A stretch of DNA of 32,000 bases from NCBI RefSeq assembly GCF_041154365.1, contig NZ_AP035449.1. The stretch is one strand, 5' to 3'. The position numbers and the translations under genes are program-made. This DNA comes from Fidelibacter multiformis (GTDB lineage: Bacteria > Fidelibacterota > Fidelibacteria > Fidelibacterales > Fidelibacteraceae). Positions 1-21,572 of the stretch are shown piece by piece (the first letter of the stretch is position 1; every line of letters starts with the position of its first letter). A model generated the notes under the pieces. The model made no database searches. It worked only from the letters and a program-made list of their open reading frames with translations, and had not been told where the DNA came from.

Positions 1-70
1 AGCGAGGTGCGAGGAACGTGAGAACGTGAATTTGCAGGGGCGAACCTTGTGTTCGCCCAAGAGCTATCAT

Positions 71-112
71 CAGTCGACAGTCGTCAGTGGACAGTTGGCA
101 GTAGTTAGTGGA
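71..112 (+). repeat. CAGTNNN heptamer tandem array (5 good units plus 1 degenerate)
   Basis: The units are cagtcga cagtcgt cagtgga cagttgg cagtagt tagtgga. The same heptamer family opens regions B (6849-6897) and C (16024-16086), and occurs inverted at 7527-7561. Confidence 0.9.
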
Positions 113-224
113 TTGATTCGATTGAATAGATTGACTGGATTGCTTGCCCCGTGAAAAGGGACCCGGTTTACCGGGATATTTCACGGGGGATTGATTCGAT
201 TGATTAGATTGGAGAATTGACCTG
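111..224. repeat. GATTG nonamer array, then a nested hairpin, then a second GATTG nonamer array
   Basis: First array: gattgattc gattgaata gattgactg gattgcttg (111-146). Outer stem CCCCGTGAAA (147-156) pairs with TTTCACGGGG (179-188), enclosing an inner hairpin CCCGG-ttta-CCGGG (162-175). Second array: gattgattc gattgatta gattggaga (189-215). A near-identical hairpin occurs at 6991-7032. Confidence 0.9.
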
Positions 225-295
225 GTTGAAACACCGGGAGCAGCGATGCTAACTTCAGACAGGCCGCAGCCTGTCCCTACATCTCGACACACATC

Positions 296-441
296 AGGAG
301 CGCAGCGACGCTAACTTCCAACTTCCACCTTCTAACTTCTTTAATAGAATTGGCGATTAATTTGATTTAGCACAAGGATTATAAGAGAGATGGGATATAT
401 GATTTCGCTTAGGTGACGCCCCCACCCCGGGGGTAAAATAC
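296..441 (+). repeat. Conserved composite module, copy 1 (NAACTTC heptamers, promoter-like TTAATT-17-TATAAG, mini-ORF, C5/G5 hairpin)
   Basis: Manual alignment to 16439-16585 gives 9 differences over about 146 nt. TATAAG is at 380-385 and TTAATT at 357-362, with a 17-nt spacer. The mini-ORF ATG GGA TAT ATG ATT TCG CTT AGG TGA spans 390-416 and is followed by GCCCCCACCCCGGGGGT. Confidence 0.8.
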
Positions 442-589
442 ATTGAATGAGTGGAGAGTGGAGAGTGGAGAGTCGTAGGGGCAGGACGTGTCCTGCCTCT
501 GAGTTGGAGTCTTGAGTTTTGAGTGTATGTTTTTAGAAAATTGCAGATTTTAAGACTTAGATTTTCAGACTTTTATTCATTGGATGATT

Positions 590-735
590 TTGCAATCAAT
601 TACTGCAAAGGCTATAAGTGAAACGAGATATATGATTTCGATTAGGTAGCGCCCCCCACCCCGGGGGTAAAATACACCGAAATGCGACACAATGCAAGAT
701 GATATTGTTATTCGTATATATGTATTATCGAATAA
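590..735 (+). repeat. Conserved composite module, copy 2 (core plus AT-rich tail), with TTGCAA-17-TATAAG promoter-like hexamers
   Basis: TTGCAA is at 590-595, followed by a 17-nt spacer and TATAAG at 613-618. The core gagatatatgatttcgattaggtagcgccccccaccccgggggtaaaatac and the tail accgaaatgcgacacaatgcaagatgatattg align to 16530-16620. The mini-ORF ATG ATT TCG ATT AGG TAG spans 632-649. Confidence 0.75.
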
Positions 736-942
736 AACAACAGATTGAGGCCTTATTTCAATCATCCCGGTCGTTGAGTAGGCCGCCGACTGGCCGGCAT
801 ATCGAGGTGCTAATATTTCGGGCGGACACAGGTCTGCACCCTCTCCCTATCGTGACCTTGTACCCTCATACCTTCCGTGCTCCCAAATTTCCTCTGCGAT
901 ATATAAAAAATAATATCAGCGTCTCCGCCCCCTCCGCAATAT

Positions 943-1024
943 AAAAACACTCTCCGCGTCTCTGCGCCCTCAGCGGGAGGCATCACCCAAAATCCCTCCG
1001 CATCTCCGCGCCCTCTGCGGGAGG
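943..1024 (-). terminator. Tandem GC-rich hairpins with T-runs immediately 3' of the protease gene stop (candidate intrinsic terminators)
   Basis: Minus strand, after the TGA stop at 1028-1026: CCTCCCGCagagggcGCGGAGA (1024-1003) followed by ...GGGATTTTGGG. A second hairpin CCTCCCGC...GCGGAGAG (980-950) is followed by TGTTTTTAT (T5 = 947-943). Stems contain a bulge, and the spacing to the T-run is not ideal. Confidence 0.35.
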
Positions 1025-1025
1025 C

Positions 1026-4000
1026 TCATTTCATATACACAATCTTCCGGATCTGCACCTGCCGGTCAAAACGGGCCCTGACGATATAAAGACCCGTAGA
1101 GAGGTGTGAAGCGGTGTAATCAAAATGGTGTTCGCCGGCGGGATGATTCGAAAAAGCTATCCGGTCTACAATGCGGCCGGTGATATCCACAACTTCAAAC
1201 ACAAGATCCCCCGCATCCGGCAGGCTGTAGGTCAACCGGGTCACCGGATTGAAGGGATTGGGATAGGCGGATCCAAGTATAAAAACTTCGGGAAGGATCT
1301 CCTCTTCCTGTCCGGGAAGGGTCCGTTTCCGGATCACCACTTTCTCCGGATCTTCTCCCCAATCGATTCTGGCAATGCCGGTCAGTTCATCCTCCGGATA
1401 TTTGGTTTTCAGTTCTGTTAAATAATACTCCGCCTGAACACTATCCGCTAAATCCTTATCATAGAGATTGAACAGATCAAAAAGGGCCGTGGTTTCATGG
1501 ATGGTTTCCGGGTTTTCCGCAAGGATTTCACGGGAGAGGGCGATGGCCTGTTTCGTATCTTTCATCCGACGGTATTCGGACACTTTCCGGGATTTGATCA
1601 CGGCCCGGAGGGTCTTATCGTCGACACCGGTCAGGAGTTCATCCAGATACGTCAGCATATCCCGGGGTTTCTGTTCACGGCAGAGGCGTACGGACATGCT
1701 CAAGGCCCGGTAGGCATAAGTGGAGGCGGGATATAAGCGGATCAGGGTCTGAAAATCATCGAGTGCCCCGGTATAGTTCTTTTCCCACACGGCACTCATA
1801 GCGACTTCCCACAGGGCTTTGGCCGCTTCGTCGCCCGGTTTTTCTTCCGGATGGGATGCGATGACCGATTCAGGGCTGCTTTTACTCAGGGTGCTGCCGG
1901 AACCGGGATCGGATTGCAAAGGATATGTGGTGAGTACATCTCCGTAACAGGCAGATGCTGAAGGTTGACCCCACCAGCAACGTCTTGCATCGATGGATGA
2001 TGTGCCATCCGATGCGACGGCGGCATAATAGGTCCCCTGCCAGATAATGGAGTTTTTGCAATTTCCCCACACTTGTGGGATATGTCCACCCATAACAGGC
2101 GTTGAAGCATTGGATGCTAAAATAACACCCTCTGAAGATTCTCCGGATGACATATAATTAAAGCCCGTGTATGTATAATTTTCATACTGTCCAAACAGCG
2201 GATCGCTCCCGTTGTTTGCATACACTGCCCATAAAGCATCCGTGGTGCTGATCGTATTATAATACAGATCCGGTGATGATGAATACATTATAAAAGCATA
2301 ATTCCCGCTTCCGCCGGTAATCAAATTATTGTGCATTTCCGAATTACTGTTCACAAAATATAGACCGAATAACCCGGATTCCGTGATTGCATTTGATTCT
2401 ATTAAGGGGGACCCGTTGTAAACATACAGGCCAAAGGTTGAGGCATTGCTGATTGTATTATCAGAAATTTCCGAACCCGCCGGGACATTCAGACTCATGA
2501 TCCCATATCCGGAATTTGATAGTTCGTTGTTGGAAATAACGACAGACCCATTCGAACCTGAACAATAAATAGCATACGTCTCTATATCGGACAATGTATT
2601 CTCATATATGTATGGGGTCGATCCATTAGAACAGTAAATACCATTTTTACTGTTTGAGATTTCATTAAAGGTTATAACAGGTGTCCCATTCAATCCTGAA
2701 TTAATTGCCCTGCTTGAAATATTTGTCAGATGATTATAAAAAATATACGTTGAAGAATTCAGAGAGCTTATTCCGTAAGATGCATCAGATATGGTATTTG
2801 AACTGAGTACCAGGGCATCCTGGCCTGTTTTCCCTGAATGATCACGAATGGCTGTGGTTGCATGGGTTATAGTGCATCCGCTTAATGAGCCCGAACTGTT
2901 TTCCTGATAATATAGACCGCCCCAGGTTCCGGAAATACTTGTAAACGTTGCATTATTTCCTTCCAGGGTTGCACCCCCTGCTATCTCCAATGTTTTTCCC
3001 GATGGATATTTTAACAGGGCTCCATCCTGAGCCACCAGCTTTCTTCCACTCGTCAGGGTATACGTATCATTAAAAATAAATTCTCCGCGAAGGTAAAGTT
3101 CTGATCCGTTATTAAATGCATCATCAATTGTTGTATACAACCCCAGAACCGTTGACCCGGACATAAGACGGATATCCGGAGTAAAGCTTGCACCGGATTC
3201 GATAGCAAGTGACCCGGATCCTTTTTGAATGGTATGACTGTCTAACGTAATATCTGACCCGTTTCTAAATGTCAGTGTCACCCCCGGGGGAACGGTGAGA
3301 CTCACGGCAAGGGTGTGAGAACCATATACATCGATACTCTGGCCACTGGTGGCGGCTGACATGGCAGATGTGATTGTGGAATATATCCCTTTAATGGCAC
3401 TTCCCGTTATAAGCCGGGTATGGGAATTGGAGGAGTTGATGGTTGCGCCGGATTCGACGGTGATCGTTCCGCCGGTAGAAATTATTGAATACCCATTCAG
3501 AGTAATATTCGTACTATTGGATATAGTTAGAGTAATACCAGAAGGAACAATAATAATTCCTGTGATTGTGTGGGATCCGGACCATATTGCATTTGCTGGC
3601 AACGTGCCTTCCGACAACATGCCATTATCAATACCATCAAGAACTGTAGCACCTGTGTTATCCGGATCAAGCCAATCTCTTAGGCGAGAAGAAGAACTGC
3701 CCCCATAATTCCATGACATAGAAAATTTGCCATACCATTTAGTTCTATATTCACAAAAAGGAACATCTCCTGTTCCTCCTTGATTCTGACCTACAACTCT
3801 ATGGTCCTGATTAATTAATGGTGCTCCAGATGACCCCCTTTCTGTAGTTCCATCATCAAATGTAACTCTCCAATGAGAATTTTCTGGTGTTACGTCCCAA
3901 GAACTGGATATTGCTTGATCGTATTCAAAGGAAATTTTTTTGATATCACCACTTGGATGATGGATAACTACAGAAGATGTCGGTGGAGTATTAATATTAG

Positions 4001-4973
4001 ACCAACCGTTATAATATACATTGTAATCAGAAGGCGGTGTTTCATCAAGTATGAGTAATGCAAAATCTGATGCTATATTACTAGCTTTGAGAGATGCTCC
4101 AACAAGTGTTTGTGCAGTCGGCTCTTCAGGAGGATTGTTACAGGTGTTGCTTTCATAATTAAACCAAATAACCCAGGTGTCAATATCCCCGTCTAAACAG
4201 TGTTCGGCAGTTAAAAAATAGGGAGCATAATTTTCTTTAACATTGTTAAGTAAAGAGCCGGAACAAAGTCTGGTACCATCACCTAGGACAATCAAACCAA
4301 CCGATCGAACTTCATTCTGCCAGTCTTCAGCTTCCGGACAATGGACATTATTATTACAAGCTTCAGAATCACCATAACCGGTAATTTTATAAAAATGACT
4401 CTTATTAGCACCCTTAAAAAAATCACGGTAAGCATGAACAACTCTGGAAATACTAATTTCACCGGTTCGGATAACATTTGCGGGTTCATAATATTCAAGA
4501 ATAATTTCATCACCTCTAACTAATCCGGTAGCAAACTTACCATGCGCTTTATTATTTCGGGATGTAAAAGCACCAATAATCATACTTTTTTCATTATTAT
4601 ATAAAAAATATTTTGATCCTTCTGGCAACCAAAATTTATCATAAATCAAGTTTATTGAATATGCACCACGAGATATTATTTTTAAACGCCATAGTTTACT
4701 TCCATCGGGAAAATTTACCCACGTACCCGAGTTTTGCATATTATATGAAACATCAAATCCATAACCAAAACGATAAGGTTCAAATTCCGGCGCATATTCG
4801 TCCTCAAACAGAAGCATTTCCGTGTCAATTTCCATCATTTCTTTAACCTCGATGGATTCTGAAACTTGTCGGCTAAAAGAGTAAGGCTGTCCCCCTTCAC
4901 TTAATTGTGCATAACTATCTGAGTATGCACATACTAAATAAAATACAACAAACAAAAAAGCTTTCAATTTCAT
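1026..4973 (-). CDS. Exported multidomain S1 (trypsin-fold, lysyl-endopeptidase-like) serine protease with parallel beta-helix repeats, a TPR-like helical region and a T9SS C-terminal sorting domain
   Basis: 1315-aa ORF. Signal peptide MKLKAFLFVVFYLVCAYSDSYAQ. Triad-like motifs LTAEHC (His258), SDFALLIL (Asp303) and ERGSSGAP (Ser382). Residues ~455-960 are G/S/N/T-rich periodic segments (e.g. NNxISxNxxYGI) typical of right-handed beta-helix repeats. Residues ~1040-1200 are helical and TPR-like. The C-terminal ~80 aa (AYPNPFNPVTRLTYSLP...GLYIVRARF) match the T9SS type A CTD pattern. SD AAGGAAA lies 8 nt upstream of the ATG. Confidence 0.85.
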   Translation of the reverse strand: MKLKAFLFVVFYLVCAYSDSYAQLSEGGQPYSFSRQVSESIEVKEMMEIDTEMLLFEDEYAPEFEPYRFGYGFDVSYNMQNSGTWVNFPDGSKLWRLKIISRGAYSINLIYDKFWLPEGSKYFLYNNEKSMIIGAFTSRNNKAHGKFATGLVRGDEIILEYYEPANVIRTGEISISRVVHAYRDFFKGANKSHFYKITGYGDSEACNNNVHCPEAEDWQNEVRSVGLIVLGDGTRLCSGSLLNNVKENYAPYFLTAEHCLDGDIDTWVIWFNYESNTCNNPPEEPTAQTLVGASLKASNIASDFALLILDETPPSDYNVYYNGWSNINTPPTSSVVIHHPSGDIKKISFEYDQAISSSWDVTPENSHWRVTFDDGTTERGSSGAPLINQDHRVVGQNQGGTGDVPFCEYRTKWYGKFSMSWNYGGSSSSRLRDWLDPDNTGATVLDGIDNGMLSEGTLPANAIWSGSHTITGIIIVPSGITLTISNSTNITLNGYSIISTGGTITVESGATINSSNSHTRLITGSAIKGIYSTITSAMSAATSGQSIDVYGSHTLAVSLTVPPGVTLTFRNGSDITLDSHTIQKGSGSLAIESGASFTPDIRLMSGSTVLGLYTTIDDAFNNGSELYLRGEFIFNDTYTLTSGRKLVAQDGALLKYPSGKTLEIAGGATLEGNNATFTSISGTWGGLYYQENSSGSLSGCTITHATTAIRDHSGKTGQDALVLSSNTISDASYGISSLNSSTYIFYNHLTNISSRAINSGLNGTPVITFNEISNSKNGIYCSNGSTPYIYENTLSDIETYAIYCSGSNGSVVISNNELSNSGYGIMSLNVPAGSEISDNTISNASTFGLYVYNGSPLIESNAITESGLFGLYFVNSNSEMHNNLITGGSGNYAFIMYSSSPDLYYNTISTTDALWAVYANNGSDPLFGQYENYTYTGFNYMSSGESSEGVILASNASTPVMGGHIPQVWGNCKNSIIWQGTYYAAVASDGTSSIDARRCWWGQPSASACYGDVLTTYPLQSDPGSGSTLSKSSPESVIASHPEEKPGDEAAKALWEVAMSAVWEKNYTGALDDFQTLIRLYPASTYAYRALSMSVRLCREQKPRDMLTYLDELLTGVDDKTLRAVIKSRKVSEYRRMKDTKQAIALSREILAENPETIHETTALFDLFNLYDKDLADSVQAEYYLTELKTKYPEDELTGIARIDWGEDPEKVVIRKRTLPGQEEEILPEVFILGSAYPNPFNPVTRLTYSLPDAGDLVFEVVDITGRIVDRIAFSNHPAGEHHFDYTASHLSTGLYIVRARFDRQVQIRKIVYMK

Positions 4974-5507: not shown

Positions 5508-6578
5508 CTATTCCACCAATTTTCCGTGTAAAACCAAGTCATATGGGCCAGGACATAGTATACTAAAAATTATATCTTTTTCTAAAATCAGAGGGTCACC
5601 AACAAAACTAATGTTTTCTGTTGGAAGCTTGTAGAGATATTCCATGTCTGTGCCATTATAGTGAACAATGCCGTCTTTCATGCAAATAAAAATATCTTTT
5701 TCATTTCTCCCGAAAATTGGTCTATAGAAATTATTCATATTTATGGAAATAAACTTTTTAAAATCATTACTTTTATAATAAAACACGTCATTACCAACAG
5801 TAAAATAAACCTTTCCATATATTGAGCTTATTCCAGCCCAGGAAATTATGCTTTCTTTATTGGAATAGATTTGCTGTAGTTCATTATCTACTACCTGATA
5901 AAATTCCACATCGCCGTCACCGGTCTCATAATTGATCCCGTATGAAAATACATACACCTTGTCATTCTCTGCTCTAATCCTCAAAAACTGTGAATTAAAA
6001 TCAGCCCGGGCCATTTCCCGCCAGTTCGTGCCGTCATAATGCAAGACAAACCCTCGCCAACACTCATTTGTTCCATCAAAAAAACTGATAACACCACAGG
6101 CATAAACATCGTTTGGTGAGGTTCCCCACATATCATAAATATTAATAGAATAGTAATCCTCTTCGATACTATACACATAGTTTTGTTTCCATTCCGCACC
6201 GTCATAATGCCAGATCCCTGCTCCATGCTCAAGCCAGCCTGCACCACCCCCCATCCATACATCATCCGCACTGAAACCAAACAGCGTAAATCCGGAACAC
6301 CAGATTGTTTCATTGGTGTACGTCGTCCACTCTGTGCCGTCATAGTGCAGCAGCCGGTCATACTGGGTACCGCCACCGCCAACCGCCCATACGTCATCAG
6401 GTGAAGCACCCCATACCGAACTGATATAATTCATGGGCATATCCAGCGTATCCAATGTCCATACATAGTTCCGTTTGCCCGGTTCCGGCTCAGGTTCAAA
6501 TTCCGAAGGATTATCTTCACAGGAACAAAGAGCCAATAGTGTTATCATACTTACTATCAGACATGTTTTCCGGATCAT
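5508..6578 (-). CDS. Lipoprotein with beta-propeller-like repeats, function unknown
   Basis: The ORF is open to 6611. The ATG at 6578 has SD GAGG 6 nt upstream and yields MIRKTCLIVSMITLLALCSCED, a lipoprotein signal with lipobox LALC. The ATG at 6611 has no SD. Six or so repeats of the type DV(W/Y)xxGxxG...(L/W)HYDG(T/A)xW suggest blades of a propeller. Confidence 0.7.
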   Translation of the reverse strand: MIRKTCLIVSMITLLALCSCEDNPSEFEPEPEPGKRNYVWTLDTLDMPMNYISSVWGASPDDVWAVGGGGTQYDRLLHYDGTEWTTYTNETIWCSGFTLFGFSADDVWMGGGAGWLEHGAGIWHYDGAEWKQNYVYSIEEDYYSINIYDMWGTSPNDVYACGVISFFDGTNECWRGFVLHYDGTNWREMARADFNSQFLRIRAENDKVYVFSYGINYETGDGDVEFYQVVDNELQQIYSNKESIISWAGISSIYGKVYFTVGNDVFYYKSNDFKKFISINMNNFYRPIFGRNEKDIFICMKDGIVHYNGTDMEYLYKLPTENISFVGDPLILEKDIIFSILCPGPYDLVLHGKLVE

Positions 6579-6793
6579 GCTTGCCTCATCTGTTTTTTCG
6601 AATTGCACCATTAGGGTGAAAAGTCTGGAATATTTTCATTCTCTTGGTTAAAAGATTGAAATCAGGTAATAAATTTTTACTTTTTCTGCAATTGTTAAAT
6701 ATATTGTTACATTGGCACAAATAATTACACATTAAAATAACTATTTTTGATTTTTGGCTCATATTACCAACACTTTTTACGAACTTACTGCAT

Positions 6794-6848: not shown

Positions 6849-6897
6849 GCAGTCGGCAGTGGACAGTCGACAGTCGACAGTCGACAGTTGGCAGTGA
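6849..6897 (+). repeat. CAGTNNN-family heptamer array, 7 units
   Basis: The units are gcagtcg gcagtgg acagtcg acagtcg acagtcg acagttg gcagtga. Confidence 0.9.
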
Positions 6898-6948
6898 CGA
6901 GGAGATTGGAGGGATTGATTTGATTGAATAGATTGATTGGATTGCTTG

Positions 6949-7032
6949 CCCCGTGAAATGAGCGCAGCGTATTTCACAGGGGATTGCCTGCCCCGTGAAA
7001 AGGGATCCGGTTTACCGGGATATTTCACGGGG
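6949..7032. repeat. Two adjacent CCCCGTGAAA(T)...(A)TTTCAC(A)GGGG hairpins, the second nested
   Basis: Hairpin a: CCCCGTGAAAT (6949-6959), loop gagcgcagcgt, ATTTCACAGGGG (6971-6982). A copy is at 16189-16222. Hairpin b: CCCCGTGAAA (6991-7000), inner CCGG-ttta-CCGG, TTTCACGGGG (7023-7032). A copy is at 147-188. Confidence 0.9.
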
Positions 7033-7096
7033 GATTCGATTGAATAGATTGATTGGATTGGGGGATTGGATGATTGGCACTTCGCTGAGCTCAGTG

Positions 7097-7420
7097 TTCA
7101 AACGCCTTCGGCGATCAAGAATTCAAGCGGCACTTCGTGCCGTTCAATTGCTTCACTTTGTTCAGCATTCAAGCACTGCTTCGCAGTGTTCAAAAAAGAA
7201 TTCCAGTCACCCATTGAAATCCGCATATCTGGAATTGAACACCGAACGAAGTGAGGTGCTTGAACCCCATGAAATGGGGGTTGAACGCCGTCAGGCGTTG
7301 GAATACCGCACAGCGGTTATTGAACACCGAACATTGTGAGGTGCTTGAACACCACGAAGTGGTGATTGAAAGCCGCGTAGCGGCGTTTAATAAATCAAGC
7401 GGCACTTCGTACCGTTCAAT
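7097..7420. repeat. Array of at least 11 short hairpins (mostly 4-6 bp stems with 3-nt loops) separated by a conserved TTCAA (left arm) or TTGAA (right arm) linker
   Basis: Left arm. CGCC-TTC-GGCG (7103-7113). CGGCAC-TTC-GTGCCG (7128-7142). CACTGC-TTC-GCAGTG (7174-7188). Right arm. CACCgaAC-GAA-GTgaGGTG (7240-7258). CCCCAT-GAA-ATGGGG (7265-7279). AACGCC-gtca-GGCGTT (7284-7299). ACCGC-aca-GCGGT (7305-7317). CACCgaAC-att-GTgaGGTG (7325-7343). CACCAC-GAA-GTGGTG (7350-7364). GCCGC-gta-GCGGC (7372-7384). Then a degenerate copy of the second hairpin at 7400-7414. Linker orientation flips near the GAATTC at 7198-7203. Confidence 0.85.
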
Positions 7421-7473
7421 TGCTTCGCTGCACTCAGCATCTCCGCCCTCTCCATAAAAAATCACTCTCAGCA

Positions 7474-7523
7474 TCTCCGCGCCCACTGCGGGAGGAAAAA
7501 GTCTCCGCGCCCTCTGCGGGAGG
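7474..7523 (-). repeat. Two CTCCGCG...GCGGGAGG hairpin modules (same family as 950-1024), each followed on the minus strand by a T-run
   Basis: tctccgcgcccactgcgggagg (7474-7495) followed by aaaaa. tctccgcgccctctgcgggagg (7502-7523). On the minus strand these read hairpin-CTTTTT and hairpin...GATTTTTTAT, which is terminator-like, yet no minus-strand gene ends here. Confidence 0.6.
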
Positions 7524-7526
7524 ATG

Positions 7527-7561
7527 TCGACTGCCCACTGACGACTGATGACTGACGACTG
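7527..7561 (-). repeat. Inverted CAGTNNN heptamer array, 5 units
   Basis: The plus strand reads tcgactg cccactg acgactg atgactg acgactg. The reverse complement gives CAGTCGT CAGTCAT CAGTCGT CAGTGGG CAGTCGA. Confidence 0.9.
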
Positions 7562-7642
7562 ATTAAGTTTACATAAAATCATTGTGTATCCCAAAAGCCT
7601 GTCATAAATTTTATTCCTAAACATAAAGAGACGAGGCAAAAC

Positions 7643-8206
7643 GTGGCATCAACAGCAGATTTCAGAAACGGGATGGTCATTGTATACAATGGCGCCCTGT
7701 GTAAAATTGTAGAGTTTCAACACAGCAAAATGGGTCGCGGCGGTGCCGTGATCCGGACCAAGCTGAAAAATATTATTACAGGACAAGTCCTGGAAAACAC
7801 ATTCCGCTCCGGCGAAAAGGTGGAAGAAGCCCGGGTTGAAGCCCGGGAAATGGAGTACCTGTATAATGACGGGACCTTCTATTACGTGATGGATCACGAA
7901 ACCTTTGAACAAATCCCCCTTTCGGCTGATATGCTGGGAGATGATGTGTACTATATGAAGGAAAACGCCTTTGTGAAGGTCCTCATGTATCAAAACAAAC
8001 CCATCGGCATCGAACTCCCCACGGCTGTTGTTCTGAAGATCACGGCCACTGAACCGGGCGTCCGGGGAAATACGGCCACCAATGTGACCAAACCGGCCAC
8101 CTGCGAAACGGGACTGGAAGTCCAGGTCCCGATTTTTATCAACGAAGGGGATCTGATAAAGGTGGATACCCGGGACGGTTCTTATCTGGGACGGGAAAGC
8201 AATTAA
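7643..8206 (+). CDS. efp: Translation elongation factor P
   Basis: 187 aa with a GTG start and SD GAGG 8 nt upstream. The N-terminus MASTADFRNGMVIVYNGALCKIVEFQHSKMGRGGAVIRTKLKN and the overall length are typical of EF-P. Confidence 0.95.
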   Translation: MASTADFRNGMVIVYNGALCKIVEFQHSKMGRGGAVIRTKLKNIITGQVLENTFRSGEKVEEARVEAREMEYLYNDGTFYYVMDHETFEQIPLSADMLGDDVYYMKENAFVKVLMYQNKPIGIELPTAVVLKITATEPGVRGNTATNVTKPATCETGLEVQVPIFINEGDLIKVDTRDGSYLGRESN

Positions 8207-15641: not shown

Positions 15642-15993
15642 GGGGGTGTACAGGTTTCGACGGGATAGACCGGTTTATGCGATAGCGTGCCGAGGTGTTC
15701 AGGATTCCTCGTGAATCAACCTGAAAACAATCGTAATTGCAGACAATTACGCTTACGCTGCTTAAACAACATTAGGTAGCCGTCCGCCCGGGTTTGTTCG
15801 TGGGCCCGGACCGGGCGCCAATAACACGGACTCGTTCCTGGTATTGTCTGGGTACTAAGAACTAAACACTTTCAGACTGGCTGCCGGTGGTTTGTTTTTT
15901 GTCCTCCCGGCAGTAAGACTCAACAAAAAACTGCGCACGGAGAAATCGTGTAAGTCGCTATTTCGGACCCGGGTTCGATTCCCGGCACCTCCA
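15642..15993 (+). ncRNA. ssrA: Transfer-messenger RNA (tmRNA, SsrA)
   Basis: The 5' end reads GGGGGTGTACAGGTTTCGACGGG and the 3' end GGACCCGGGTTCGATTCCCGGCACCTCCA. The acceptor stem GGGGGUG/CACCUCC has a G3:U wobble. The T-arm is GGGTTCGATTCCC. The tag reading frame GCA GAC AAT TAC GCT TAC GCT GCT TAA (15739-15765) encodes ...ADNYAYAA-stop. CCA is not encoded. Confidence 0.95.
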
Positions 15994-16023
15994 CTTGTAA
16001 ATGTTTAGACGTTGTTTTGTTGG

Positions 16024-16438
16024 CAGTCGGCAGTTGACAGTTGTCAGTCATCAGTCGTCAGTCGGCAGTCGGCAGTCGGCAGTGGTGAGGGGATTGGGGA
16101 GATTGATTCGATTGGATAGATAGATTTGATTGAAACACCAGGAGCGACGCTAACTTCCAACTTCCAACTTCCAGATTTTGATTGCCTGCCCCGTGAAATG
16201 AGCGCAGCGTATTTCACAGGTGATTGATTGGATTGGGGGATTGGCACTTCGCTGCACGCAGTGTTATAGGATTCAAGCGGCACTTCGTGCCTTTCAATTG
16301 CTTCGCTGCGCTCAGCATTCAATCGCCTTCGGCGTTCAATGATTCCAGGCGTCGACATTTGAACGCTGCGCAGCAGCGTTTGAAAACCGCGAAGCGGCTA
16401 TTGAACCCATGAGCCCCTGAACCCATGAACCAACTATC
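16024..16438. repeat. Mosaic non-coding repeat region C (same module families as A and B), starting 30 nt after ssrA
   Basis: Order of modules. CAGTNNN x9 (16024-16086). GATTG nonamers x5 (16092-16136). ttgaaacaccaggagcgacgctaa plus NAACTTC x3 (16151-16171). CCCCGTGAAAT hairpin (16189-16222). A GATTG tract. A triloop hairpin array with TTCAA linkers: GGCAC-TTC-GTGCC (16279-16291) and CGCC-TTC-GGCG (16324-16334). The linkers then switch to TTGAA after GTCGAC (16351-16356): AACGCTGC-gca-GCAGCGTT (16362-16380) and CCGC-GAA-GCGG (16387-16397). Confidence 0.9.
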
Positions 16439-16640
16439 AGGAGCAAAGCGACGCTAAATTCCAACTTCCACCTTCTAACTTCTTAAATAGAATTGGCGAT
16501 TCATTTGATTTAGCACCAGGATTATAAGAGAGATGGAATATATGATTTCGCTTAGGTAACGCCCCCCACCCCGGGGGTAAAATACAGCGAAATGCGACTT
16601 AAAGCAAGATAATATTGATAATAATATATATGATGAATAA
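16439..16640 (+). repeat. Conserved composite module, copy 3 (full length: heptamers, TTCATT-17-TATAAG, mini-ORF, C/G hairpin, AT-rich tail)
   Basis: Aligns to 296-441 (9 differences) and to 612-735. TATAAG is at 16523-16528. The mini-ORF ATG GAA TAT ATG ATT TCG CTT AGG TAA spans 16533-16559. The module ends 5 nt from the stop of the convergent response regulator gene. Confidence 0.8.
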
Positions 16641-19491: not shown

Positions 19492-21531
19492 ATGATGGAC
19501 CCGCCGGTTGCTCCGAGAATTGAAAAAAAGATTGAAGCTTTCGGAGATATTCGGGTGGATCATTATGACTGGCTGAAAGATAAACAGAATCCGGAGGTTA
19601 TCCGATATCTGGAGGCGGAAAACGATTATGCAGACTTTATCCTGAAAAACACCCGTAAGTTGCAGAAAAAACTGTACCGGGAAATGATCGGACGGATACA
19701 GGAAACAGATATGTCCGTCCCTGTGAAACACGATGATTACTTTTATTACAGCCGGACGGAAAAAGGGAAACAATACAGCATCTATTGCCGGAAAAAAGGA
19801 TCCTTGGACCATAAAGAAGAGATCTATTTTGATGCCAATACACAGGCTGAGCATAGTGATTTTTATTCCTTGGGACTTCTAAGTGTGTCCTCCAACCATC
19901 AGATCCTTGCCTATGCCGAAGACCGGAATGGCTCGGAAGTATATACCCTGCGTTTTAAAAATCTTGAAAAGGATTCCCTCTATCCGGAAGTCATCGACAG
20001 TGTGGCCGGCGGGGTATGGGCAAATGACAACAAGACCTTTTTTTATTCAACCATTGATTATACCTACCGCCCATGGCGGGTTTACCGGCATGTTCTGGGA
20101 ACTCCCGCTTCAGAGGATGTCCTGGTGTATGAAGACCCGGACATGGCCTACTATGTGGATGTGGACCGTTCAAAGGACAGGCAGTACATCTTTATTACAT
20201 CCGCAAGCAAGATCACAACAGAAGTCCATTACCTGAAAACCAGCGATCCTGAAAAGGATTTCACCCTTTTTGCACCCCGGGAGAAGGGAAAGGAATACAG
20301 CCTGGAACATCGGGACGGATTTTTCTATATCCTGACCAACCTGAATGATCAGAAAAATTTTATCATCCTCCGTCAGCCGGTTTCAGCACCGGCCTTTACA
20401 CAGACCGTCACAGTGTATGAACACAATCCGGAGGTTAAAATCACCGGTTTGGATATGTTTGAAGATTATCTTGCCGTCTACAAAACCGGAAATGCCCGGG
20501 CCATGATTGATGTGTATACTTTTGGGGATAAAGAAGCCCATACCATTTCCTTTCCGGAAGAAACGTATACCGCCCGGGGGACCGGCAATCCGGAATATAC
20601 ATCGGACGTTTTGAGAATTTACTATACCTCACTTCTTACCCCCGAGACGGTTTATGAATATAATATGAAAACCCGGGAACTCTCCCTGCTGAAACAAAAA
20701 GAAGTCCGCGGCGGTTGGGACCGTCACGATTATACCACGGACCTCTTATGGGTCACAGCCCGTGACGGGGCGAAAATCCCGGTGTCGATGCTCTACCCGA
20801 AAGGATTTAAAAAAGATGGGACTCAGCCTGTGTTTCTTTATGGATACGGAGCATACGGTATTGCCATGACACCCTATTTTTCCTATGCCCGCTGGAGTCT
20901 GGTGGACCGGGGATTTGCCTATGCCGTCGCCCATATAAGGGGTGGCGGAGCCAAGGGTGAATACTGGTATGAAGACGGGAAATGGCTGAAGAAAAAAAAT
21001 ACCTTTACGGATTTTATTGATGTGGTTGAATATCTTATCCAGGAAGGTTACACGACACCTGAAAAACTGGCCATAGGTGGCGGGAGCGCCGGCGGTCTTC
21101 TCATGGGAGCTGTCGTAAATATGCGCCCGGATCTCTTTGGGGTTGTGGTGGCCAGCGTTCCCTTTGTGGATGTCCTCAATACCATGTCGGATCCCGATTT
21201 ACCCCTGACCGTCACCGAATATGACGAATGGGGGAATCCGGGCATCGAAACCTATTACCGGTACATCAAAAGTTATTGTCCCTATACCAATGTGAAAGCA
21301 CAGGACTATCCTCCCATGATGATTACAGCGGGGCTGAATGATCCCCGGGTTTCCTATGCCGAGCCGGCCAAATGGACCGCCAAACTCCGTGCCCTGAAAA
21401 CAGATCATCATCCCCTGATTTTAAGAACCAATATGGGGGCCGGACACGGGGGAGCATCGGGCCGTTATGATGCCTATAAGGAAATTGCTGAGGAATATGG
21501 GTTTGTTTTGGGAATCATTAAAGGAGAATGA
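19492..21531 (+). CDS. ptrB: Oligopeptidase B / prolyl oligopeptidase family S9A serine peptidase (start as in the ORF track; see the A7 frameshift finding)
   Basis: 679 aa. N-terminal PPVAPRIEKKIEAFGDIRVDHYDWLKDK beta-propeller domain. Catalytic Ser in GGSAGGLLMG, with Asp (GLNDPRV) and His (GAGHGG) near the C-terminus. Upstream in the same frame, codons 19426-19491 encode KKVYDISLLFTSIILLLSCSQE, a lipoprotein signal, but contain no in-frame start codon. Confidence 0.9.
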   Translation: MMDPPVAPRIEKKIEAFGDIRVDHYDWLKDKQNPEVIRYLEAENDYADFILKNTRKLQKKLYREMIGRIQETDMSVPVKHDDYFYYSRTEKGKQYSIYCRKKGSLDHKEEIYFDANTQAEHSDFYSLGLLSVSSNHQILAYAEDRNGSEVYTLRFKNLEKDSLYPEVIDSVAGGVWANDNKTFFYSTIDYTYRPWRVYRHVLGTPASEDVLVYEDPDMAYYVDVDRSKDRQYIFITSASKITTEVHYLKTSDPEKDFTLFAPREKGKEYSLEHRDGFFYILTNLNDQKNFIILRQPVSAPAFTQTVTVYEHNPEVKITGLDMFEDYLAVYKTGNARAMIDVYTFGDKEAHTISFPEETYTARGTGNPEYTSDVLRIYYTSLLTPETVYEYNMKTRELSLLKQKEVRGGWDRHDYTTDLLWVTARDGAKIPVSMLYPKGFKKDGTQPVFLYGYGAYGIAMTPYFSYARWSLVDRGFAYAVAHIRGGGAKGEYWYEDGKWLKKKNTFTDFIDVVEYLIQEGYTTPEKLAIGGGSAGGLLMGAVVNMRPDLFGVVVASVPFVDVLNTMSDPDLPLTVTEYDEWGNPGIETYYRYIKSYCPYTNVKAQDYPPMMITAGLNDPRVSYAEPAKWTAKLRALKTDHHPLILRTNMGAGHGGASGRYDAYKEIAEEYGFVLGIIKGE

Positions 21532-21572
21532 AGAATGAAGAATGAAGAATGATGAATGATGAATGATGAATT
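21524..21572 (+). repeat. Heptamer tandem repeat (A/G)(A/T)GAATG x7 spanning the ptrB stop codon
   Basis: The units are gagaatg aagaatg aagaatg aagaatg atgaatg atgaatg atgaatt. The ptrB TGA stop (21529-21531) lies in unit 1. The repeat supplies several ATG and TGA triplets in all frames. Confidence 0.9.

Follow-up and report, generated by a model that had tools for sequence, protein, structure and literature searches.

The stretch of DNA analysed here, hereafter called the window, comprises 32,000 nucleotides (nt) of contig NZ_AP035449.1 of Fidelibacter multiformis, and all positions are given in its numbering. Our subject is a non-coding composite at positions 6849-7561, upstream of efp, in which short tandem arrays and hairpins follow one another in a fixed order. 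As detailed below, this composite is one copy of a family of repeat elements. We examined it with Tandem Repeats Finder (TRF), self-BLAST of the window, Rfam covariance models, Pfam searches on open reading frames (ORFs) and RNA folding compared with shuffled sequences.

Modular layout of the composite upstream of efp

The composite consists of the following modules.

6850-6895, plus strand: heptamer array (CAGTCGN), module 1, 5.6-6.6 copies by TRF; canonical 5' end of the element family
6904-6948, plus strand: nonamer array (GATTGNNNN)x5, module 2, TRF period 9
6949-6982, unstranded: long hairpin 1 (HPA), CCCCGTGAAAT / ATTTCACAGGGG around a GCGCAGC mini-hairpin
6991-7033, unstranded: long hairpin 2 (HPA), same outer stem, enclosing a CCGG-TTTA-CCGG hairpin
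7038-7077, plus strand: second GATTG array, by TRF
7078-7213, minus strand: hairpin array, left block, 5 units (hairpin + TTCAA), spacing 25/21 nt
7201-7234, unstranded: pivot between the hairpin blocks, TTCCAG...22 nt...CTGGAA, read from the sequence
7214-7394, plus strand: hairpin array, right block, 7 units (TTGAA + hairpin)
7395-7440, minus strand: two further hairpin units in inverted orientation, a duplicate of 7123-7154 (97% direct repeat)
7441-7523, plus strand: CTCCGC(G)...GCGGGAGG modules, with hairpins at 7475-7495 and 7503-7523 and a degenerate copy at about 7441-7455
7525-7561 (repeat units 7527-7561), minus strand: inverted heptamer array (NNNACTG)x5, reverse complement of module 1

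A first-pass annotation, made by a model from the sequence alone, had proposed this ordered series, and both TRF and direct reading of the sequence found every element in its place. It had also described the first and last arrays as reverse complements, which is borne out by terminal arms at 6850-6886 and 7525-7561 that are mutually complementary over 37 nt (81%). Within the nonamer array, GATTG recurs every 9 nt (at 6904, 6913, 6922, 6931 and 6940), and the array as a whole is 96% identical to positions 110-156 of the window. The arms of the long hairpins are CCCCGTGAAA(T/A) and TTTCAC(A/G)GGGG, i.e. CCCCGTGAAA...TTTCACRGGGG. Folded as RNA, hairpin 1 reaches -18.6 kcal/mol (z -4.4) and hairpin 2 reaches -23.6 kcal/mol (z -2.9). 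Both have counterparts at 96% identity elsewhere in the window, at 16180-16226 for the former and at 137-192 for the latter. They fall exactly between 9-mer units, and taking them out restores the array.

The whole 721-nt stretch folds far better than shuffled sequences, both strands alike (z -10 and -11), and the minimum-energy fold pairs the two terminal heptamer arrays (z -10). The ORFs within this copy gave no Pfam match. Rfam searches at gathering and permissive thresholds, run on the window, the region, L019 (see below) and 18 other loci, returned nothing within composites: they yielded only transfer-messenger RNA (tmRNA), transfer RNA (tRNA) and signal recognition particle RNA, all outside the composites, and the best in-region E-value was 1.4.

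The CTCCGCG modules are 96-100% identical to positions 1000-1024, where they adjoin the stop codon of a convergent gene. They were considered as intrinsic terminators of the minus strand, on which the hairpin (-10.3 kcal/mol) is followed by CUUUUU. As its stability is no better than that of shuffled sequences (z only -0.8) and the terminator scan was silent, this assignment is a weak one.

A family of copies with a single module order

The composite is not singular. Self-comparison of the window by TRF and self-BLAST showed that it holds three copies in all, whose shared modules are 91-100% identical and agree in both strand and order. The other two are as follows.

1-1025, plus strand: second copy, running off the window start and ending at the stop codon of the convergent gene 1026-4973
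16018-16640, plus strand: third copy, starting 22 nt past the tmRNA gene (15642-15996) and ending at the stop codon of a convergent response-regulator gene

Relatives carry the modules at unrelated loci, namely a Neomarinimicrobiota metagenome-assembled genome (MAG; L019), Marinimicrobia bacterium 46_43 (L125), JGI contigs L130-L132 and metagenome contigs L145-L152. The lineage of the element is Marinimicrobia (Neomarinimicrobiota), from samples of the anaerobic digester and oil-reservoir type. We mapped the modules with regular expressions in the window, L019, L125, L130, L131, L145, L148 and L150-L152, and found one module order and one orientation in all the mapped sequences. The element begins with the heptamer array (CAGTCGN)n, which also opens the copies at 71-112 and 16022-16083 and those of L019, L125, L130, L145, L148 and L150-L152. 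The nonamer array (GATTGNNNN)n comes next, followed by an optional third module that combines CAGGAGCG..GCGACGC with (AACTTCC)n. In the middle part, one or two long hairpins with the GCCCCGTGAAAT/ATTTCACGGGG stem are set between GATTG units and precede the 21/25-nt hairpin array, in which (hairpin-TTCAA) units form a first block and (TTGAA-hairpin) units a second, separated by a pivot. The 3' part is variable and comprises (TGAACCCA)n, a second CAGGAGC/AACTTCC module and a conserved 3' module with GATTTCGCTTAGGTAACGCCCCCCACCCCGGGGGTAAAATACAGCGAAAT. The copy at 6849-7561 contains modules 1, 2, 4 and 5, then the CTCCGCG modules that also end copy 1-1025, and finally the inverted heptamers. The best full copy, at positions 130-1000 of L019, is 82% identical over 335 nt and lies upstream of a phosphomannomutase gene.

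Apart from 6849-7561, the bracket of inverted heptamers was found only in a 240-nt mini-copy (L148 185-430) and not in the other full copies. As only one other bracketed case was seen, the terminal inverted repeats that the first-pass annotation had described are a trait of the window copy and not of the family. The bracket would be explained if an extra heptamer array stands inverted beside the efp promoter.

Several other repeats were observed in or near these copies. The conserved 3' module with GATTTCGCTTAGGTAACGCCCCCCACCCCGGGGGTAAAATACAGCGAAAT occurs at 394-442, 627-690 and 16538-16605 of the window, at 875-940 of L019, and in L125, L130 and L151. Its predicted fold (-20.7 kcal/mol, z -2.8) is a C5/G5 hairpin enclosed by an ATTTCGC/GCGAAAT stem; its copies are without clear co-variation and it has no Rfam match. 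Further array types, seen at 1-70 and 449-572 of the window and in L148, L149 and L150, are (GAACGTGA)2, (GAGTGGA)3.6, (AGATTTTAAGACTT)2 and (ACGCGTN)n. The window begins inside a composite. In L149, positions 1-1014 hold heptamers, GATTG, CAGGAGC/AACTTCC and ACGCGTN heptamers at the degenerate-repeat end of two CRISPR arrays, whose 37-nt repeat is GTTTCAATCCTTGTCTTAATGGAAGGGGGACTTCAAC. L145 harbours, roughly 600-1150 nt past the start of its composite, a putative transposase-like ORF of the DDE/integrase-core type on the reverse strand, recognised by eye and showing no sign of linkage to the element. Elsewhere in the window, an (AGAATGA)3(TGAATGA)3 array at 21525-21571 extends from the stop codon of an S9 peptidase gene (19492-21531) and fills the spacer to the next gene. 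Here tandem heptamers stand at a stop codon without other modules of the element.

The array of small hairpins

Between positions 7078 and 7440 we found 10 perfect hairpins with stems of at least 4 bp, versus 3.8 +/- 1.8 in shuffled sequences, together with 4-5 imperfect ones; most have 3-nt loops. They are separated by linkers that read TTCAA (7097-7189, 7415) or TTGAA (7214-7366), with spacings alternating between 21 and 25 nt, for a background of fewer than 2 such pentanucleotides per kb. Read in its own orientation, each unit comprises TTGAA(C), a stem of 5-6 bp, a triloop and the return stem. There is a single linker type, and the units are oriented in blocks of 5 inverted, 7 direct and 2 inverted. 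Since the TTGAA-tagged units stand inverted in the left block, the loops there read TTC on the plus strand; those of the right block are GAA, GTCA, ACA, ATT, GAA and GTA. The pivot at 7201-7234, with its TTCCAG/CTGGAA stem, has the appearance of a decayed hairpin unit, and the L125 and L131 units to which it aligns are intact.

When units inside composites were chosen by their linkers alone, all of them fold (12/12), with seven different stems and with GAA (most frequently), GTA, GCA or ACA loops that are mostly closed by C-G. Triloops of the d(C-GNA-G) type were reportedly described by Hirao and colleagues as exceptionally stable mini-hairpins in DNA and much weaker ones in RNA. The stems are maintained through compensatory changes: in the alignment of paralogous and orthologous arrays, 10 of the 21 consensus pairs keep pairing by way of double changes. 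The array has moreover been passed between species as one collinear block of 200-300 nt. The left block is collinear with L019 322-635 at 82% identity, although the locus is unrelated, and the right block is 89% identical to L148 1614-1799.

In viral contigs, the TTGAAC-stem-CGAAG-stem unit gave 66 matches, but in no case is the stem complementary throughout. The best 8 of them, with 3 of 4 stem positions complementary, lie in sequence of protein-coding appearance and were therefore set aside as chance occurrences.

Variation among strains

Nine independent contigs from other samples encode an identical efp protein; each of them reproduces the composite from its right side and breaks off within it. 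JGI contig L131 holds 383 nt of the efp-side composite, and a contig approaching from the left side, by way of the next gene, ends about where the left array begins. Because independent contigs reproduce the composite and all end there, the sequence is real, and so repetitive that short-read assemblies break in it.

The differences between strains are exact 7-nt steps, or whole modules that have been gained, lost or exchanged. Measured from one fixed anchor to the next, the right heptamer array has 35, 56 or 63 nt depending on the strain, and the left array of the tmRNA copy 62 or 20 nt, with 3 heptamers instead of 9 in L131. All the differences in array length are multiples of 7, as replication slippage produces. 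Modules vary as well: L131 has a CAGGAGC/AACTTCC module in place of the two units found at 7395-7440 of the window, plus one extra CTCCGCG unit, and the copy number of CTCCGCG varies among strains. In L130 (10385-10720), the same response-regulator gene retains the proximal half of the element, with different genes on the other side. As the gene on the far side differs, synteny in L130 breaks exactly at the element.

Position and orientation relative to genes

A consensus promoter and a promoter-like leader flank the window copy.

6821 to 6794, minus strand: sigma-70-type consensus promoter, 12/12 match to TTGACA-16-TATAAT, firing leftward to gene 5508-6611; outside the element
7562-7642, plus strand: efp promoter and leader, promoter-like CTGACG-16-TAAAAT; not part of the element

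The leftward promoter, which the first-pass annotation had correctly read as a consensus promoter, sits 28 nt outside the left heptamer array and is preceded by a 13-nt T run. Its perfect match suggests that this host of the FCB group uses classical -35/-10 promoters and not those of the Bacteroidetes type. On the other side, efp starts with GTG at 7643, 80 nt beyond the right array as previously stated, and these 80 nt contain 4 differences relative to the 88%-identity relative L153. Given the consensus leftward promoter and the conserved, promoter-like efp leader, the window copy probably does lie between back-to-back, divergent promoters. Upstream of the conserved 80-nt leader, the L153 contig continues into inverted arrays, among them about 11 heptamers, and ends there. 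In two more distant efp relatives, L154 and L155 (81% and 73% identity), the element is absent, the spacer is 88 nt and the upstream genes are different; with just this spacer in these relatives, the element is lineage-specific and dispensable for efp.

Copies of the element fill whole intergenic gaps. Only 0-25 nt separate the 5' heptamer array from the stop codon or 3' end of the co-oriented upstream gene in the tmRNA copy and in L130, L145, L150 and L152. In gaps of the tandem type the element is co-oriented with the adjacent gene in 5/5 cases (L148, L150, L152, the downstream gene in L019 and the downstream tRNA in L125), roughly p = 0.03 if orientation were random, and it is co-oriented with the upstream gene in 5/6 cases. 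In convergent gaps, its 3' end adjoins the stop codon of the other gene. The copy at 6849-7561 is the exception, as it sits between gene starts. Its right array faces efp in the orientation that reads ACTGA, as does the array located 25 nt upstream of the first L148 gene. TAACTGA arrays were described in the same 'forward' arrangement relative to start codons (MacGregor 2015, PMC4679880).

Across the copies scanned, no promoter or terminator consistently bounds the element. A promoter upstream of the 5' array, which would make the element its own transcription unit, was plausible in L148 only and inconsistent across copies, and this option was dropped.

A long hairpin shared across phyla

A search for the long hairpin in one genome of each species, using the pattern GCCCCGTGAAA-N8-32-TTTCACRGG, gave at least 120 loci (L010-L129); the following counts apply to the matches listed. 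The outer stem GCCCCGTGAAAT...ATTTCACGGGG, also ending in ...ATTTCACRGGG, is present in multiple copies over several phyla of the FCB group. An extra T and A extend the stem in 94/120 loci, for about 7 expected by chance, and a YT 5' flank is found in 61/120. Several copies per genome occur in Chlorobium MAGs, Bacteroidota CSMAG_1571 and CSMAG_1309, Rikenellaceae, a peat Bacteroidales MAG and Saprospiraceae, and the other multi-copy carriers are Cloacimonadota, Neomarinimicrobiota, Omnitrophota and Stahlbacteria. The interior of the hairpin is variable and often contains one or two mini-hairpins with GAA, GTA or TTT loops. Flanking arrays are made of GATTG in Marinimicrobia, of GATTTG/AATTTG in Bacteroidota and Cloacimonadota, of TTGCTTG in the peat Bacteroidales MAG, or of TTCCAAA-like units. 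The gaps that harbour the hairpin are mostly tandem (37), less often convergent (13) or divergent (5), and no recurrent neighbour gene was found beside it in the 120 loci.

The long hairpins show C.A and T.G mismatches in addition to compensated T-A pairs, all in the same orientation. As both mismatch types share one orientation, they do not tell which strand is transcribed. The long hairpin has no match in viral contigs; with only chance matches to the small unit there, a phage vector is not supported. A literature search on the stem sequence returned only PCR primers, and the hairpin matches no Rfam family.

Interpretation

We favour, with moderate confidence, the view that 6849-7561 is one copy of a multi-copy family of oriented, non-coding mosaic elements of 0.6-1 kb, which resemble bacterial interspersed mosaic elements (BIMEs) and Neisseria intergenic mosaic elements (NIMEs) and change by slippage and recombination. 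The arrays would expand and contract by replication slippage, and recombination or gene conversion between copies would both shuffle the modules and homogenise them. A transposition step involving hairpins of single-stranded DNA, as for repetitive extragenic palindromic (REP) sequences and their REP-associated tyrosine transposases (RAYTs), may add to these processes. If the element has a function, it is most likely passive and BIME-like: its stable hairpins would serve as punctuation, insulation or stabilisation where neighbouring transcripts end, and its arrays as mutable spacers. Such a role is probably one of passive punctuation of transcripts rather than control of efp, and the copy at 6849-7561 would be no dedicated efp regulator.

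Several observations sit less easily with this view. No transposase, target-site duplication or pair of empty and filled sites was found, so that how the element spreads is something we infer. Its module order and orientation are stricter than in BIMEs or NIMEs, and its orientation bias could reflect a strand-specific function, possibly at the RNA level. A terminator-like role of the CTCCGCG modules is weak (z -0.8). Lastly, the long-hairpin stem conserves its very sequence from phylum to phylum, beyond what pairing would require, which suggests a conserved trans-acting factor. It is tempting to speculate that the stem (Y)TGCCCCGTGAAAT...ATTTCACGGGG(Y), always located between lineage-specific tandem arrays, is the handle of an undescribed trans-acting system of the FCB group, of which the Marinimicrobia composites would be the most elaborate products. 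The system could involve a hairpin-binding nuclease, a recombinase, a transposase or an RNA-binding protein. We regard this proposal as tentative; if true, the Marinimicrobia composites form a new class of ordered, oriented non-coding element instead of a passive pile-up of repeats.

A rival explanation, which we consider doubtful, is that an HUH (Y1) transposase encoded once elsewhere in the genome uses the TTGAA triloop hairpins as single-stranded DNA substrates, and perhaps also the long GCCCCGTGAAAT hairpin, and copies them into intergenic DNA, as in REP/RAYT systems, the composite being a BIME-like pile-up of insertions. In each unit a variable stem does follow a conserved pentanucleotide tag, TTGAA (usually TTGAAC), on its 5' side, and the units occur in both orientations and in tandem. 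Their GAA, GTA or GCA loops closed by C-G are said to form extra-stable mini-hairpins in DNA. The location of the long hairpins exactly between 9-mer units is insertion-like, their G.T and C.A mismatches are without strand asymmetry, and among the matches listed they favour tandem and convergent over divergent gaps, as REPs do. However, we saw no Y1 transposase in about 200 kb of related DNA and no recurrent family of neighbouring genes among the matches listed, and inheritance of the hairpin array as a collinear block between species argues against independent insertions. In addition, the tag is neither GTAG nor CGTC, and the stems and loops are unlike those of the described REP super-families (PMC3733652).

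It is likewise unlikely, in our opinion, that the element is a functional structured RNA, transcribed in sense as a long 3' or 5' untranslated region or as an RNA of its own. Such an RNA would act through its hairpins and its CAGUCGN, GAUUG, UUGAA and AACUUCC motifs, for instance as a multivalent platform or a sponge for an RNA-binding protein, and a terminal helix would close the window copy. The strong orientation bias relative to flanking genes points in this direction, as do the co-variation of the stems and the pairing of the terminal arrays in the minimum-energy fold; because the 5' array adjoins the upstream stop codon or the tmRNA 3' end, read-through transcription is likely. Yet both strands fold equally well, the terminal helix is lacking in the other full copies, strains differ freely in the modules they contain and in the lengths of their arrays, and neither consistent bounding promoters or terminators nor an Rfam match were detected. 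Triloops closed by C-G are, moreover, said to be a signature of DNA rather than RNA. For related NNACTGA arrays, binding of S1, Csp or CsrA has been proposed (PMC4679880).

The first-pass annotation had suggested that the composite may lie in a zone between divergent promoters, where negative supercoiling could drive cruciform extrusion or a nucleoid or regulatory protein could bind the arrays. Taken as a locus-specific model, this would mean control of efp and of the neighbouring exported-protein gene. The geometry is indeed divergent for the window copy, perfect short palindromes are denser than by chance and the TTCAA/TTGAA linkers recur at 21 and 25 nt. Against the model, the same element occupies gaps of the tandem and convergent types at other loci, the efp relatives at 81% and 73% identity lack it upstream of that gene, and strains vary in module content at the efp locus itself. 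Stems of 4-6 bp are also short for cruciform extrusion, and overall the model appears improbable.

That the composite is an assembly artefact or a decayed protein-coding gene seems next to impossible: such repeats do confuse assemblers and every short-read contig breaks here, yet independent assemblies from at least nine samples match up to 383 nt base for base, and the ORFs have no Pfam match and relatives no gene at this position upstream of efp.

These results show an ordered, non-coding repeat element of kilobase size in a phylum that has received little study; it occupies about 7% of the window. Every short-read assembly examined breaks at the element, and so does synteny between strains, which matters for MAG quality and strain typing. 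The heptamer-array phenomenon is extended from cyanobacteria, Beggiatoaceae and Bacteroidetes to Marinimicrobia, and it is tied to a hairpin stem conserved across phyla that offers a concrete bait for the factor responsible. If a dedicated enzyme or RNA-binding protein makes or reads the element, it represents a new repeat system. If there is no such factor, it is a well-delimited example of intergenic DNA built by slippage and recombination.

Comparison with known repeat families

The first-pass annotation knew of no described family with this architecture. The statement holds for Rfam and for the literature searched, as a search for Marinimicrobia with repeats and hairpins found no paper, but the general kind is known from BIMEs, NIMEs and heptamer assemblages. 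CRISPR arrays have identical repeats of 24-48 bp and unique spacers of similar size, whereas the constant part here is 5 nt (TTGAA) and the variable parts are palindromes of about seven recurring types that are conserved between species. Miniature inverted-repeat transposable elements (MITEs) such as the Correia element are also small, non-coding and multi-copy, with terminal inverted repeats as in the window copy. Unlike theirs, the inverted ends here are tandem heptamers, present only in the window copy and the L148 mini-copy, while the ends of other copies are unlike each other; the flanks of 10 copies share no duplicated sequence indicative of a target site.

BIMEs, the REP clusters of E. 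coli and relatives, are similarly extragenic, multi-copy and non-coding, made of small imperfect palindromes in both orientations with short conserved linkers, strain-variable and often located at the 3' ends of genes. The REP-type definition of extragenic palindromes of 20-40 bp in many copies fits the 16-20-nt units and the 34-43-nt long hairpins, which recur inside each of the three composites, from one composite to another and in related contigs. However, the tag is GTAG or CGTC in REPs and TTGAA(C) here, and described REP families have stems of 8-9 bp and loops of 4-5 nt (PMC3733652), compared with 5-6-bp stems and triloops in our units. In REP clusters orientation alternates, with defined linkers; the hairpin array has both orientations and one linker type, with changes by blocks and not unit by unit. 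Around the hairpin array stand other modules in fixed order and orientation, namely heptamer and nonamer arrays, long hairpins and 3' modules. The NIMEs of Neisseria, like the element described here, are long intergenic mosaics in which a small set of short repeats is shuffled from locus to locus and strain to strain, and they presumably promote recombination. Each of their units is bracketed by the 20-bp dRS3 inverted repeat, and no dRS3-type bracket (ATTCCC-N8-GGGAAT) was detected in the sequence of the window copy or in its inverted repeats. The module order found here is largely fixed and oriented.

Assemblages of heptamer arrays that break assemblies have been reported in Bacteroidetes and cyanobacteria, and TAACTGA arrays also in Beggiatoaceae (MacGregor 2015, PMC4679880). 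Like these heptanucleotide arrays (LSSR, cyanobacterial STRR, TAACTGA), ours are intergenic mixtures of heptamers with 7-nt indels, in which head-to-tail units vary in steps of 7 nt. They differ in that they come from another phylum and that the units are CGACTGA, TGACTGA or CCCACTG, which share 5-6 of the 7 bases with TAACTGA. They also constitute the outer modules of a larger ordered element with conserved hairpins, and most of them adjoin stop codons in the opposite reading orientation. The element thus works most like BIMEs, NIMEs and the heptamer assemblages of MacGregor, yet it departs from each of them in the very features by which they are defined.

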